Source: an uncultured Pseudomonadota bacterium (GTDB lineage: Bacteria; Pseudomonadota; Alphaproteobacteria; Rs-D84). From it: a DNA stretch of 59,004 bases. The notes beneath the pieces are model-generated. The model did not search any database, was not told the DNA's origin, and saw only the letters and a program-made list of their open reading frames with translations. The stretch lies in the NCBI GenBank assembly GCA_947165335.1, contig CAMVAB010000001.1, positions 1 to 59,004 of the forward strand, given 5' to 3'. This document shows, piece by piece, positions 11,938-59,004 of the stretch (within the stretch, counting starts at the first letter, position 1; each line of letters begins with the position of its first letter). Made by a program: the position numbers and the translations under genes.

Positions 11938-12297
11938 TTTGATCCTTTTTGTATTTAATCTCAAAATAATACAAAAAATTATAATCGTCAAGTATTTTAC
12001 AAATAAAAACCGCACCGTTTGGTGCGTTTTTTATTTATTTATGGGGCGGGTAACCTTTTCCTCGATACACAATAATAAAAATCTATAAAAACTCGTATTA
12101 AAAAACTCCGTTTTTATGATTTTTCTAATTGTGCATTCTCGTGTTCGCTCGGGCCTTGCCCTGCGCGGCACTCCTGACAAATCGCCTGCGCTGCGCTTTG
12201 CTCTTTTACTCGTAGTCGAACTGGCCAATGCCAGTTCTAGAATCTGGTCACACCTAATAAATTAAAATACCGCCACTTTGGGCGGTATTTTAATTTA

Positions 12298-12410: not shown

Positions 12411-12513
12411 TGGTGGAGCTGATCAGACTCGAACTGACGAGTACGTTTGCATGTCATTAAGTGTCCCAATCATTCCACTCTGCCAGATTATTTACGCAAT
12501 CTACATAAAAACC
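12411..12513 (-). pseudogene. Chimeric tRNA-like remnant
   Basis: 12411-12440 is identical to the 3' 30 nt of tRNA-Ala (12514-12543). The upstream part has a Leu-type D arm (GTGGAATGATTGGGACAC). No 5' acceptor strand or anticodon stem can be formed. Confidence 0.55.
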
Positions 12514-12589
12514 TGGTGGAGCTGATCAGACTCGAACTGACGACCCCTTGCATGCCATGCAAGTGCTCTACCAACTGAGCTACAACCCC
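12514..12589 (-). tRNA. tRNA-Ala (GGC)
   Basis: Manual cloverleaf: acceptor GGGGTTG/CAGCTCC with the G3:U70 alanine identity pair, anticodon loop ATGGCAT, T loop TTCGAGT, CCA encoded. Confidence 0.9.
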
Positions 12590-20997: not shown

Positions 20998-21275
20998 TTT
21001 TTTATAACCGCGCTTTTAATTAATGTTACATCTTCTTTGATTCCATCTATCTTTAATTGCAATTGACCTATCCCAGATTCAAGAATTGTTGTTCTGTTTT
21101 CAAGAGATGTTATACGCTGATCCTGTCGTTCAATTTCAGAAAGAGAAGAATCTTGACGGGCGACCCAATAAATTAACCCTGCAATAAAGGCCAACAAAAA
21201 CCATGTATCGCGCAACATATCTATTACACCAATGAAACCTTGTTTTTTTGGCATGTTAATATAATAATTTACCAC
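20994..21275 (-). CDS. Small membrane-anchored coiled-coil protein (phage-module end)
   Basis: One TM helix (TWFLLAFIAGLIYWV) followed by heptad-like repeats. Confidence 0.4.
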   Translation of the reverse strand: MVNYYINMPKKQGFIGVIDMLRDTWFLLAFIAGLIYWVARQDSSLSEIERQDQRITSLENRTTILESGIGQLQLKIDGIKEDVTLIKSAVIKN

Positions 21276-31254: not shown

Positions 31255-31492
31255 ATAAAATCCTTTTTGTTTTAATTAAAAAATGCCCGAACGGGCACGA
31301 CACAATTTTGATTTATGGTTATGCAAAATAATTTGCGCCAAAAAAACAAAACAAAATACTGGTCCACAAAATGGATTGTCCAATAAATAATACAGTGAGA
31401 CTTTGCAATCGCACTGTAAAATTTATCAAAAAAATCCCCAGAATCTAAAGATTCTGGGGACAATAAAAACCACGCAAAAACGCGTGAAATTC

Positions 31493-31783
31493 TTATTTTT
31501 TCTTTGCTACTTTTTTAACTGCTTTTTTTGCAGCTGGTTTTTTAGCAGGTGCTTTTTTTGCAACTGGTTTTTTTGCAGCTACTTTTTTTGCAGGTGCTTT
31601 TTTAGCAACTGGTTTTTTTGCAACTACTTTTTTTGCAACTGGTTTTTTTGCAGGTGCTTTTTTAGCAACTGGTTTTTTTGCTGCTGGTTTTTTAGCAGCT
31701 ACTTTTTTTGCAGGTGCTTTTTTTGCAGCTGGTTTTGCAGCTGGTTTTTTAGCGCATGCACATTTTTTCTTTAAACCGAACAT
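31493..31783 (-). CDS. Histone H1-like Lys/Ala/Pro repeat protein
   Basis: About 17 tandem AKK(P/V/A)(A/V) pentapeptides, encoded by 15-nt DNA repeats. Confidence 0.6.
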
Positions 31784-35037: not shown

Positions 35038-36060
35038 TTACATCCGCAACAAATATTTTTTCACGAACCAGCCTGAATTCAACTGAATTGCCAAATTTAA
35101 AAAATATTTTTTAAAATTGAAACAATTCGCCCATCTGGTCCAACCAAACAAAGACGCCATCTGTCCGATTGAAAGTTCATTAAAATCTTTGTGTTGAATT
35201 ATGTTTATAATTCTGTTTTTCAATCTTTTTGCTGTTTTTTTTCGCATTAAAATAAAACCATTGAAATGCCGATAACCTATGAAAGGGATTCCATCCAAAG
35301 TTCTTTTCAAATCAGCCTTTGATAAAATCATACTTAAATTTTGTTCAAGAAAGTTTTTAATTTTACTTTTCATGGAATGCAGTTGTTTTTTATCATTGCT
35401 GTACAAACAGAAATCATCGCAATATCGAATATAATCACGACAATGTAAATCATGTTTTACAAATTGATCAAGTTCATTTAAATAAACATTTCCCATCCAC
35501 TGCGAAGTAAGATTACCAATAGGCAAATTAGTATTTCCCCCCACAGAATCTATTATTTCAGATAACACACGCATTATGCGTCTGTCATGAATTTTACGTT
35601 TTACGATATTTTTCATAATTTCATGGTTAATAGATGGGAAAAATTTCCGTATATCACATTGTAAAACATATTTATTGCGCCGTATGAAGTGCATAGTTTT
35701 TTGTGATGCCCCCAAAAGTCCACGTCCAGGGATACAAGCATAAGAATCTTTGATGAAAGATTTTTGCCAAATTGGCCCCAAAACATTTATCAAAGCATGA
35801 TGGACAATATGGTCGGGATACAATGGCAATTTATAAATTATGCGTTGTTTTGGTTCATAAATTTTGAAAGTTTTATAACATGAAGTTTTATATTTACCGG
35901 TTTTAAGACTATTTCTTAATTTTTCTATAAATTCATCTTTGTGTGCCAGAAAATGTTTAACAGATTTCTTTGATTTTTTGCTTTTAATAGCCTTTTTTAC
36001 AGCTAATTCGAAATTTTCTTTTGAAATGAATTTGTCCCACAAATTTTTATAAGTTTTCAT
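35038..36060 (-). CDS. DGR-type reverse transcriptase
   Basis: Motif 4 IGNLTSQ (the DGR signature I/LGxxxSQ), YCDD catalytic box, N-terminus NLWDKFISKENFELAVKKA. The ORF-track start at 36096 is also possible. Confidence 0.9.
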   Translation of the reverse strand: MKTYKNLWDKFISKENFELAVKKAIKSKKSKKSVKHFLAHKDEFIEKLRNSLKTGKYKTSCYKTFKIYEPKQRIIYKLPLYPDHIVHHALINVLGPIWQKSFIKDSYACIPGRGLLGASQKTMHFIRRNKYVLQCDIRKFFPSINHEIMKNIVKRKIHDRRIMRVLSEIIDSVGGNTNLPIGNLTSQWMGNVYLNELDQFVKHDLHCRDYIRYCDDFCLYSNDKKQLHSMKSKIKNFLEQNLSMILSKADLKRTLDGIPFIGYRHFNGFILMRKKTAKRLKNRIINIIQHKDFNELSIGQMASLFGWTRWANCFNFKKYFLNLAIQLNSGWFVKKYLLRM

Positions 36061-36108
36061 TTTTATTCTTCTTTTGTTTTCTTGAAACATCACCACAAAA
36101 AGAACACT

Positions 36109-36435
36109 TTAAGAAAAACTGTAATATCTTTGTACATGAACAACGGTTCCAACGAAAGGTATTTGGTTTGAAAATTCTTTTACCTGTTTAGTTAAAACAC
36201 TGCTGCCTGTAAACAAAACACAAACTTCGCCATCCAATAAGAATTGTAATTGCAAACATTCTGTGCCGTCTTTTTGTTTTGAACGTCTTATTCTGTAATC
36301 GATAACTTTGATTTCGCGGTTAACAATTTCATCAAGACGCTTTTTATTCCCAGGCATAGGCGTTTGATCTTTTGCAAAAACCGAAAATTTTGGACATTCT
36401 GTATTTTTTATTTTTTCAATTTCATCAAATGTCAT
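36109..36435 (-). CDS. 108-aa ORF between TR and RT (candidate non-Avd DGR accessory protein)
   Basis: Intact ORF with a purine-rich stretch (AAAGAGAGAAAA) just upstream of the ATG. Predicted beta-rich and basic (KVIDYRIRRSKQKDG). No resemblance to the helical Avd. Confidence 0.5.
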   Translation of the reverse strand: MTFDEIEKIKNTECPKFSVFAKDQTPMPGNKKRLDEIVNREIKVIDYRIRRSKQKDGTECLQLQFLLDGEVCVLFTGSSVLTKQVKEFSNQIPFVGTVVHVQRYYSFS

Positions 36436-36460: not shown

Positions 36461-36513
36461 GGATATCCCGGACGTTCGCCACGATACAGAACAAACTACT
36501 AGTCCAGATATCC
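36461..36513 (-). other. Long hairpin in the TR-downstream spacer of the DGR RNA
   Basis: GGATATCCCGGAC...GTCCAGATATCC form a roughly 12-bp stem with one bulge. Confidence 0.5.
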
Positions 36514-36703
36514 CCTGCGTATTGTGTTTGATCCAAAGAAAAATAATTTTCCCGGACAGGTTACATCGTCCCACCTTTGATGTGAAAAGGTCTTGTCCAA
36601 ACAGATATCGTTGTCGTCGATACCTGAAAAGTGCCAATGCACTTTGTCCTGCAGGTTAGCCAAACTTTGATCCCTTTGATCTCTGTTGTACCTTTCCAAA
36701 GGA

Positions 36704-36838
36704 GCGACCGACCCGAAAAGCCCGACGCGCATAGCTTCGTTGTTCCGGGCGTTGTTGCCACAGTTGTTCGTGCAATTCGAAGCGCACGAGGCGGCGGACC
36801 CGTTGTCGTTGTTGAACACCCAAAGCGACGCCACGGGA
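36704..36838 (-). repeat. DGR template repeat (TR)
   Basis: 135 nt, GC-rich, non-coding (no start codon). 25 adenines in the sense strand, mostly in AAC codons. Matches VR1 and VR2 except at adenines. Confidence 0.92.
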
Positions 36839-37207
36839 AAAACCCCACGCCACACAACAGCCATCGCACAACCGATTACGACGATGCAACCCAGTTCCGT
36901 ATGGCGGAACCATTCCCAAAAGATTCATGGTGAAATCTTTTGATGATGTATTCTTGTGTTCAAACACATCATTAAAAGATGGTTCTCTCCCCCCCCGTGT
37001 GTGTGGGGGGGGAACCTATTGACCTTCTTTTATAAAGCAAAGGTTTTTCAGGCCGAAACAAAGAAGGTCAATTTCGGCCTGTCCCGCTTTACTGCGGGAC
37101 AGGCGATGTGGGGATTCTCCCCACACCCCTGTTTGCGGCATATCGTGTTTCACACGATATGCAAACCGTTCTGCCGTGCCGCGTGTATTCGCCCCGTTTC
37201 GTTCACA

Positions 37208-37675
37208 TCATTGTGCGACCGACCCGAAAAGCCCGACGCGCATAGCTTCGACGTACCGGGCGTAGTAGCCACAGTAGTACGTGCAACTCGAAGCGCACGA
37301 GGCGGCGGACCCGTAGTCGCCGTTGAACACCCAAAGCGACGCCACGGGATGAGTCATTTTACACCAACAATAACGTCCATATTTTTCACTGCCCTGAACA
37401 AGGTTGGTTTCCCCGTTGTTCGTATCAGTCAACTGCGATTCGTAATACCCCATCGATTTACCCTGGCCCGTATTTAAACACGCAGAAATACCGTATATCA
37501 TGCCGTATGGAAACGTCGCATTCCAAAGCCCTGCTGTCGCATCGTATGTCCCCCCAGCAGTCCCGGCAACCGTTGGATCCAATACCACCACCACAGAATT
37601 ATCAACCGCACACATCGTCGTCGCAAATGACGGTATCGTTATCATCATCATCAATGCTGTTATAATCCGTTTCAT
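37208..37675 (-). CDS. DGR variable protein 1 (155-aa secreted Cys-rich protein)
   Basis: Start MKRIITALMMM with an AAGGAAAG RBS and a signal peptide. C-terminus is YCWCK...SLWVFNGDYGSAASCASSCTYYCGYYARYVEAMRVGLFGSVAQ. Confidence 0.85.
   Translation of the reverse strand: MKRIITALMMMITIPSFATTMCAVDNSVVVVLDPTVAGTAGGTYDATAGLWNATFPYGMIYGISACLNTGQGKSMGYYESQLTDTNNGETNLVQGSEKYGRYCWCKMTHPVASLWVFNGDYGSAASCASSCTYYCGYYARYVEAMRVGLFGSVAQ
37215..37349 (-). repeat. DGR variable repeat 1 (VR1)
   Basis: 135 nt colinear with TR. 11 mismatches, all at TR adenines. Confidence 0.92.
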
Positions 37676-37769
37676 CTTTTCTTTCCTTTTGTTTTGCTTC
37701 TTCCCCGTCCGCTTCTGATTCTTCCCTTGGGGGGAATACTCGCGCAGCAAGAGAGGATAGAATCCCCTT

Positions 37770-38240
37770 TTACCACACCGATTCATACATCGCAGACCGG
37801 AACGTTGTATTCGTTTTAACCGCTGTCATACAATCGTTCGTGCAATTCGATGCACATGTTGCTGCATCCGTATAGGTATCTAAAAACATCCAATATGATG
37901 TTATCCCTGTTTCTGTTCCATACGAATATACGGGTTCCATTTTGCACCAACAATATTTGCCTTGGTCTACGGATGATGTGTATAAATTCGTTTGTGGGGT
38001 TGCGTATGTCCCGCTTATTCCATTACATGCTGCTATGCCTGTTACGCGTTTCGTTGTATTATTTCCATAATCAAAATCAACATACCATATTTTGCCATTG
38101 TTCGATGATGTCCCAGTCGTCCCGGCAATATTCTTTTTCAATATGCCAACATAAGTGTTGTTTTTCGCACACACCGTAACAGCATTTGCAATATCAATTC
38201 CAAATAAACATACAAAAAATAATATTAAAAATTTTTTCAT
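37770..38240 (-). CDS. Paralog of the DGR variable proteins with a decayed (non-TR-matching) VR region
   Basis: Signal peptide and YCWCK motif. C-terminus is ...TDAATCASNCTNDCMTAVKTNTTFRSAMYESVW. Only a 15-nt identical core (37836-37850) is shared with TR. Confidence 0.75.
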   Translation of the reverse strand: MKKFLILFFVCLFGIDIANAVTVCAKNNTYVGILKKNIAGTTGTSSNNGKIWYVDFDYGNNTTKRVTGIAACNGISGTYATPQTNLYTSSVDQGKYCWCKMEPVYSYGTETGITSYWMFLDTYTDAATCASNCTNDCMTAVKTNTTFRSAMYESVW

Positions 38241-58036: not shown

Positions 58037-58245
58037 CGGCTTAGGAAGGGACCGAAAACTGATTTGTTCCCCTCTGGCTAGAGGGGTGCCGGAACGGCGG
58101 GGTGTTGCAGGTTCTCCCCTTGGGGGGAGTACCGGCGCAGCCGGGGAGGGAGGATCCCCCGCCACAGGCGGGGAATAAAAAACACCCACTTTCGTGGGTG
58201 TTTGCGTGTTGCCGTGCCGCGTGTATTCGCCCCGTTTCGTTCACA

Positions 58246-59004
58246 TCATTGTGCGACCGACCCGAAAAGCCCGACGCGCATAGCCTCGCCGCCCCGGGCG
58301 CGGGAGCCACAGTAGCTCGCGCAATTCGAAGCGCACGAGGCGGCGGACCCGCGGTCGCCGTTGAACACCCAAAGCGACGATGATGCATTTTGTTTATTTC
58401 CATTTAATGGTTTATATCCCGTTGCCTTACACCAACAGTATTGGCCCGTGCTATTTTTATTATATGATGCATCGGTAACGTATAATTTTGACCATATCTC
58501 GCCAGTTGCTTCGTCATATGTTATTGTGCCATTACTGTATCTTGTAAATATATCGGCTGCTATTGCGCCTTTTTCCTGACCAGCCAACGATGTATAGTTT
58601 GCTAAGAATTCATATGGATCCATTTGGCCGCCAACGGCAGATTCTACATTAGCTACAAAATACGCCATACCCGCATCCAATGTTGGTTGGCAACTCGCTT
58701 CACCGTATACTGTGCCATAACTGAATTCTGTTTTCCATTCGTTGACCGCTAAATCGCTTAATGCCGCACTTTCCTGGGTACATACACTTGCCCCTTCAGA
58801 ATCAACAGTCCCATCGCCATATGCAGAACAATAATCTGTATTATTATTCCACCCATGTCCGTAAGAATGATTGCCATCTATCGATGCATTTAATGTGGAC
58901 AGGTCAAATCCACGCACACGCCAGCCGCCGAATGTATATCCGGTCTTTGTCATTGTATTTGTTGGTAATGTTATCACACTGTCGTATGTACATGTGTTCG
59001 CTGT
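58246..59004 (-). CDS. DGR variable protein 2 (Flg_new repeats + large Cys-containing domain + VR2; 5' end outside window)
   Basis: The frame stays open to the window edge (TANTCTYDSVITLPTNTMTKTGYTFGGW...). C-terminus is YCWCK...SLWVFNGDRGSAASCASNCASYCGSRARGGEAMRVGLFGSVAQ. Confidence 0.85.
   Translation of the reverse strand, partial: TANTCTYDSVITLPTNTMTKTGYTFGGWRVRGFDLSTLNASIDGNHSYGHGWNNNTDYCSAYGDGTVDSEGASVCTQESAALSDLAVNEWKTEFSYGTVYGEASCQPTLDAGMAYFVANVESAVGGQMDPYEFLANYTSLAGQEKGAIAADIFTRYSNGTITYDEATGEIWSKLYVTDASYNKNSTGQYCWCKATGYKPLNGNKQNASSSLWVFNGDRGSAASCASNCASYCGSRARGGEAMRVGLFGSVAQ
58253..58379 (-). repeat. DGR variable repeat 2 (VR2), remote from TR
   Basis: 127 nt colinear with TR 36704-36830. 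16 mismatches, all at TR adenines. Confidence 0.9.

Follow-up and report, generated by a model that had tools for sequence, protein, structure and literature searches.

Most DGRs are assumed to rely on a difference between IMH and IMH* like that of BPP-1; the work on this pair in BPP-1 is reportedly that of Doulatov 2004 and Guo 2008, 2011. To our knowledge, nothing concrete has been proposed for target discrimination in DGRs whose IMH and IMH* are identical. In such DGRs recognition 'would have to extend downstream' (PMC5758913). The target hairpin described by Guo et al. 2011 has a GC-rich stem of 7–10 bp, the sequence of which is free, and a 4-nt loop that reads 5′-GRNA in sense orientation, and is located 4–34 bp from the VR 3′ end (PMC3240598). 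The mechanism of DGR cDNA integration, including the sparing of the TR, is unresolved (PMC12875486, 2026). Here we describe a DGR in which the TR and both its targets end in the same sequence, and a short sequence that follows the targets only.

The DGR locus

A stretch of 59,004 nt (hereafter the window) from a Ca. Enterousia-like gut or rumen alphaproteobacterium was analyzed. The components of the DGR, all of them on the minus strand, are as follows.

35038–36096, minus strand: DGR reverse transcriptase (RT); RVT_1 E=9e-13, phrog_1423 E=8e-101, IGNLTSQ motif
36109–36435, minus strand: accessory ORF of 108 aa, located between TR and RT; L026, a related locus, has an equally long ORF in the corresponding position
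36480–36703, minus strand: non-coding DGR RNA region, conserved, on the 3′ side of the TR; corresponds to the spacer of BPP-1 and has covariation-supported hairpins
36704–36838, minus strand: TR, the last 28 nt of which (36704–36731) are adenine-free; its 3′ flank is TCCTTTGGAAAGG
37215–37349, minus strand: VR1, 135 nt, at the 3′ end of the gene of a small secreted variable protein (37786/37672–37208)
58253–58379, minus strand: VR2, 127 nt, at the 3′ end of the gene of a larger variable protein, whose frame stays open as far as position 59004, where the window ends

An [I/L/V]GxxxSQ motif is a mark of DGR RTs. The locus is a genuine DGR: an RT of the DGR type lies beside the TR, and the differences between the TR and the VRs fall on template adenines. 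There are 11 differences between the TR and VR1, and 16 between the TR and VR2, which lies 21 kb from the RT; every one of these mismatches (11/11 and 16/16) is at a TR adenine. The 127-nt TR has 25 adenines in all. No viral relatives of the RT were found. The 108-aa ORF had no match in Pfam, PHROGs, NCBIfam or PDB sequences, and its single-sequence AF2 model (pLDDT 47) is too low in confidence for use. Avd is common in DGRs but not universal; the ORF is not recognisably Avd and is a candidate for a non-Avd accessory protein.

A C-type-lectin or Ig fold is typical of DGR variable proteins, though it does not define them. The AF2 model of the VR1 variable protein (37208–37786, minus strand) has a pLDDT >90 over residues ~75–185, and the predicted structure consists of a beta core and two C-terminal helices that bear the variable residues. 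A search with this model revealed no Foldseek match at E≤0.001 in PDB or BFVD, there was no Pfam match, and neither of the two typical folds was recognized. Since no likeness to them is detectable, the VR1 protein and its homologs P0002–P0052 may represent a new DGR variable-protein scaffold.

The VR1 gene has a third paralog (37770–38240, minus strand) as its immediate upstream neighbour. It contains a decayed VR at 37830–37865 that is 78% identical to the TR core, has neither the adenine-free tail nor the 43-nt flank described below, and appears to be either a former target or a gene that was never recruited as one. A G/C-rich intergenic repeat (...CTCCCCCCAAGGGGAGAA...) that forms hairpins is present at 37719–37767 and 58112–58160, and also in the related loci L024 and L028; it is REP-like, occurs near VR loci without being specific to them, and is distinct from the 43-nt flank.

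The plus strand has a negative GC skew between positions 21000 and 59004, and both target genes are on the minus strand; judged from GC skew alone, they are therefore probably co-directional with replication, an orientation reported to favour DGR editing (PMC12875486). Elsewhere in the window, there is a tandem array at 31466–31781 with a 15-nt period (~15 or more copies, 62–88% identity). In addition, 30 nt of the 3′ part of tRNA-Ala recur 103 nt upstream (12411–12440 versus 12514–12543) without a predicted tRNA; the repeat could be an att-like duplication or a fragment of a tRNA.

The flank of the two VRs

The 43-mer TGCCGTGCCGCGTGTATTCGCCCCGTTTCGTTCACATCATTGT is present in two exact copies.

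37172–37214, minus strand: flank copy 1, 3′ of VR1; match to the flank-family profile at 37168–37210, E=7e-8
58210–58252, minus strand: flank copy 2, 3′ of VR2; match to the flank-family profile at 58206–58248, E=1e-7

The identity of these two segments had been reported in a preliminary description of the window. Both matches are exact, and identity between them breaks off at both outer edges of the 43 nt, beyond which the sequence on either side of each copy is unique within the one contig. No third copy was found in the window even when up to 3 mismatches were allowed; the number expected by chance is 0. The preliminary description was wrong in placing the 43 nt directly after the stop codon. 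Both target ORFs finish with ...GSVAQ*, their TGA codons being at 37210–37208 (VR1) and 58248–58246 (VR2). The stop codon is thus inside the 43-mer, 7 nt of which are coding or stop and 36 nt 3′ UTR. In sense orientation, copy 1 reads A-CAA-TGA (37214–37208) followed by 36 nt of 3′ UTR (37207–37172).

The 43 nt are absent from the TR. The 28-nt adenine-free tail TGCGCGTCGGGCTTTTCGGGTCGGTCGC (...GGGTCGGTCGC) is identical in the TR, VR1 and VR2, and this DGR therefore has an 'IMH' equal to its 'IMH*'. From the next base on, both VRs continue with the 43-mer and the TR with TCCTTTGGAAAGG, which has no similarity to it, so that the TR departs exactly at the end of the adenine-free block, as had been stated before. 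Because the tail is common to all three repeats, the flank alone separates the VRs from the TR.

Folding of the flank and downstream hairpins

No significant hairpin was found within the 43 nt (fold z-scores of −0.35 and +1.55 under DNA and RNA parameters, respectively), and a hairpin inside the flank, of which the preliminary description had seen no convincing long example by eye, was rejected on these z-scores. Nor did the VR tail and the flank folded together do better than shuffled sequences (z = +0.42 and +0.10). An imperfect inverted repeat formed by the adenine-free tail and the flank and centred on the stop codon appears in minimum free energy folds, but it does no better than shuffles in the window, L024, L026, L001, L009 and L017 and was rejected as well. 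A known RNA family was also considered, and the flank had no Rfam match at or near the gathering score. Among the relatives, the L015/L016 subclass alone has a strong hairpin right after the stop codon.

Outside the 43 nt, a strong inverted repeat lies downstream of each copy.

37138–37162, minus strand: hairpin 9 nt 3′ of copy 1, GCATATCGTGT-GAA-ACACGATATGC; 11-bp stem, no T-run
58180–58203, minus strand: hairpin 6 nt 3′ of copy 2, AAACACCCAC-GAAA-GTGGGTGTTT and a T-run; GRNA-type loop, 10-bp stem with 5 GC pairs

The hairpins start 49 nt (VR2) and 52 nt (VR1) from the end of TR homology, and the one at VR2 was also scored as an intrinsic terminator in a terminator scan. The same layout, the flank and then a hairpin, is found in relatives, where the stems are other ones and the loops are GAAAA, GAATA or GGCAA. 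With a strong hairpin 6–9 nt past each copy, the layout resembles that of IMH plus hairpin. The earlier suggestion that the flank acts differently from the BPP-1 cruciform is thereby weakened, though it was right that the 43 nt hold no hairpin of their own.

The flank in related DGRs

The preliminary description had proposed to look for further copies and to compare the flanks of related DGRs. The sample consisted of 23 RT relatives (57–68% amino acid identity), of loci reached via homologs of the target proteins, and of a metagenome pattern scan. With the pattern of the adenine-free tail the metagenome scan yielded only 3 loci, and neighbour-gene look-ups for VR2 orthologs yielded only contigs broken at or before the VR, or the L021-type DGR.

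C-terminal VRs followed by a homologous flank were found in the window (both copies), L024, L026, L001, L009, L013/L029, L017, L030, L031, L032 and L033. The family has the form TGATGT, ~8–12 nt, GG.CG(T/C)GG..CG, ..ACGCG.G(A)CACG, and the end of the conserved block coincides with the end of the 43 nt of the window. A profile of the flank was searched against both strands of 487 kb of related DNA and gave 13 matches, all 13 of them at VR 3′ ends, with no other match up to E=10. Of the 22 occurrences of the short motif CG[CT]GGCAC, 8 lie in VR flanks.

A dispersed repeat (REP/MITE-like) was looked for by exact, 3-mismatch, blastn-short and profile searches; a repeat family at many non-VR loci was the preliminary description's example of a finding that would undo its claim. 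All of these were negative outside VR ends: the window has its 2 copies only, the scan of viral contigs gave 0 matches, and in the 487 kb of related DNA the profile matches are confined to VR 3′ ends. The claim is thus not refuted by its own test.

The flank is not present at every VR. In L025, the VR looks adenine-diversified and ends ...GGGTCC followed by ATTGAACAATAA; TR homology stops 8 nt earlier, and the element is lacking. The L021-type sister DGR (L021/L040) has two VRs with unrelated flanks, and the target of L040/L041 that is adjacent to rpmG (L33) is followed by just TCAGGTTATGTAA and a terminator. Decayed, adenine-containing VR paralogs (L034–37, L044–45, L028 and 38240–37770 of the window) have a TAA stop codon and a plain terminator, without the element.

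The closest relative, L024, comes from an independent assembly, and its VR1 ortholog is followed by the same flank. In the 36-nt UTR part, 35 of 36 positions agree with the window, compared to 80–82% identity in the gene body, 86% in the next 50 nt past the flank and 56% in the rest of the VR–TR spacer (Fisher p = 0.006 for flank versus gene body and 2e-7 for flank versus spacer). The TR and the DGR RNA are 96% and 95% identical, respectively, a degree of conservation like that of the flank. Such identity of the flank, set against 56% in the spacer and ~80% in coding sequence, argues for purifying selection. L013 and L017 are 82% identical in the flank and 33–43% in the later spacer. More distant loci no longer show this contrast: between the window and L026 the identity of the flank is 58%, and it has diverged as quickly as the spacer.

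A peculiar case is L027. Its variable-protein gene is identical to that of L026 (10001–10472) over 914 nt, the VR included, after which the flank switches just past TGATGTT. The differing flank of L027 starts 4 nt past the stop codon and is homologous to 12058–12152 of the window. L027 is either an assembly chimera at a repeat or a structural variant without the DGR cassette.

A candidate boundary element of the target

We prefer, with a probability of about 0.5, to read the 43 nt as a recognition or boundary element specific to VRs. It would correspond to the portion of the BPP-1 IMH that discriminates between the repeats, and would work together with the downstream hairpin. Since the tail is identical in donor and recipients, the machinery can tell a recipient only by sequence past the tail. 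Integration of cDNA should end at the adenine-free tail common to the TR and the VRs. The recipient would be marked past this point by TGATGT, made up of the stop codon and the three nucleotides after it, by ~30 nt of 3′ UTR that is conserved and unstructured, and lastly by a locus-specific hairpin with a G/A-rich loop. The element may recruit or position the RT, an accessory factor or the RNA-cDNA complex, or may otherwise license cDNA integration, with the hairpin assisting as in BPP-1.

The preliminary description had put the flank forward as a target-recognition element. What stands is that it is VR-only, that it is the sole discriminator between the TR and the VRs, that it is conserved, that 13 of 13 profile matches are at VR ends, that decayed VR paralogs lack it, and that in a second case, L017 and L032 (see below), an RT-adjacent and a remote VR again have one and the same flank. 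The VRs of L025 and L021/L040 that lack it and the probable recombinational history of the VR2 copy (see below) tell against the claim, and the role in homing is what we infer.

The locus and its relatives together delimit a short, natural and VR-only candidate with clear comparative signatures and a defined spacing to a hairpin; its small size would permit transplanting and mutating it in a reconstituted system. Should the element be sufficient to license a target, it would aid in finding remote DGR targets in genomes and in designing orthogonal DGR-based diversification tools.

Alternative explanations

Somewhat doubtful, yet the strongest of the alternatives, is the view that the flank is a by-product of recombination. 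A VR1-type 3′ end with 43 nt of UTR would have been copied when a paralog was recruited, or by gene conversion between VR loci kept homologous by the TR, and the conservation of the flank would reflect an ordinary 3′-UTR or terminator-proximal role, or none. VR2 itself speaks for such events. Its closest ortholog, P0053 (83% identity), has the same first variable codons as VR2 (58246–58290) and ends ...EALRTALFYTGQ; all VR2-type orthologs end FRxxVFxxxQ or ALRTALFYTGQ, while VR2 of the window ends AMRVGLFGSVAQ, like VR1 and the TR, and then continues with the same 43 nt. Since the C-termini of the orthologs are unlike that of VR2, the 3′ end and flank of VR2 appear to be derived and imported: the 3′ part of VR2 and its flank probably came by recombination from a VR1-type locus after the species split. 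Import of the VR2 copy could by itself explain the identity of the two flanks. The fast turnover of the flank between more distant lineages, the VRs of L025 and of the L021 type, which manage without it, and the VR2 hairpin, a textbook terminator, are in line with this view too.

Three observations speak against it. The first is the identity of 35 of 36 positions with L024 already described, against the much lower values in the spacer and coding sequence. The second is that decayed paralogs of the same family lack the element, though a generic 3′-UTR function would be common to them. The third comes from the L017 VR adjacent to the RT and the remote VR of L032, which both match the L017 TR (for the L032 VR, 15 of the 16 mismatches fall on adenines) but are from different assemblies; L032 adjoins rpmG and an acyltransferase, like VR2 of the window. 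After the stop codon their flanks are identical over 98 nt, the hairpin included, but the coding C-termini differ by a 15-nt indel and the 7–22 nt between VR and flank differ, which a single conversion tract would not give.

An unlikely possibility is that the target is chosen by RNA. The DGR RNA region is strongly conserved across the RT family (loci L001–L029), for instance in AAAGTTTGGCTAACCTG and GGACAAAGTG...CACTTTTC, and probably serves this DGR lineage as its priming/spacer RNA. It contains one feature that bears on the flank, which we regard as a lead only.

36574–36590, minus strand: putative hairpin CCTTT-TCACATC-AAAGG, ~115 nt beyond the TR on its 3′ side, with a loop complementary to TGATGTGAA, which lies at the stop codon in each flank copy

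The loop of the DGR RNA, 5′-UUCACAUCA-3′, would pair with 5′-TGATGTGAA-3′ on the sense strand at the target stop codon, that is, on the strand annealed by the cDNA and a few nucleotides past the cDNA 5′ end. A branched RNA-cDNA would then anneal to the VR by its cDNA and to the adjoining flank by its RNA loop, for which the flank motif TGATGTGA is the proposed partner; the other nucleotides of the flank would be a spacer or a protein contact. The TR would be spared because it has no docking site. The 9-mer occurs at 3 places only in the window, the two VR flanks and, as the complement, the DGR RNA, and TGATG(T/C) is present without exception at the 14 C-terminal VR flanks of the clade, irrespective of how the C-terminus is extended. 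Compensatory changes are seen in L015/L016 (loop GCAUC, flank TGATGC) and in L013/L029 (loop UUACAUCA, flank TGATGTA).

The complementarity, however, is limited to 6–9 nt, with ~0.04 matches expected by chance in the ~250-nt DGR RNA region (our rough estimate, for the window alone), and over a 1.1-kb region it does not exceed shuffles. The changes in L026 and at the RT-adjacent VR of L017 have no compensating partner, relatives with an internal VR (class B) keep the hairpin without the complementarity, and some flanks fit the loop of another lineage better. The hairpin was not recovered by RNAalifold, although other hairpins of the DGR RNA covary, and conservation of TGATG may be mere stop-codon context. 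A search for identity or complementarity of the flank to other parts of the DGR (spacer, TR and RNA) revealed nothing above shuffles except the 9-mer. If pairing of this kind did take place, a base-pairing determinant of DGR targeting would be programmable and, since the mechanism of cDNA integration is unresolved (PMC12875486), also new.

Finally, a duplication by chance or through a collapsed or mis-joined repeat in the assembly is very improbable: contigs of the family do often break at VRs (L038–L041) and L027 changes its flank after 914 nt of identity with L026, but no copies are expected by chance, both copies have unique surroundings within one contig, and the flank recurs after the VR1 ortholog in L024, an independent assembly.

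Comparison with known systems

The closest described counterpart of the flank, read as a boundary element, is the IMH/IMH* pair of BPP-1 (PMC3240598, PMC5758913). In both systems a VR-specific sequence lies directly 3′ of a G/C-rich block common to the TR and the VR, it would define the recipient repeat, and a hairpin follows. The BPP-1 IMH is 21 bp long, lies within the ORF and differs from IMH* at 5 positions. The sequence described here is 43 nt long, 36 of them past the stop codon, and is identical at two targets 21 kb apart, whereas the counterpart at the TR end, TCCTTTGGAAAGG, is wholly unrelated to it. The flank is thus IMH-like but departs from the BPP-1 IMH in two respects: there is no near-identical IMH*, and most of it is outside the ORF.

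The downstream hairpins correspond in part to the target hairpin, or cruciform, of Guo et al. 2011. A strong inverted repeat is present after each copy of the flank, with stems that differ by locus and G/A-rich loops in sense orientation; at VR2 the stem has 10 bp, 5 of them GC pairs, and the loop is GAAA, and at VR1 the stem is 11 bp long and the loop, GAA, has 3 nt instead of 4. Unlike the published hairpin, they begin 49 nt (VR2) and 52 nt (VR1) past the TR homology (published range 4–34 bp). They lie outside the 43 nt, their stems are only 45–50% G+C, and the one at VR2 is also an ordinary terminator.

Targeting of terminator stem-loops by group IIC introns, an analogy drawn in PMC3240598, similarly involves a retroelement guided to a site beside a terminator-like hairpin. 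Here, no intron or ribozyme is present, and a conserved sequence lies between the homology block and the hairpin.

The DGRs with identical IMH and IMH* considered by Wu et al. 2018 (PMC5758913) are matched by the 28-nt identical tail of this locus. The downstream element was not defined there; here, a candidate for it, conserved in a family of related DGRs, is delimited.
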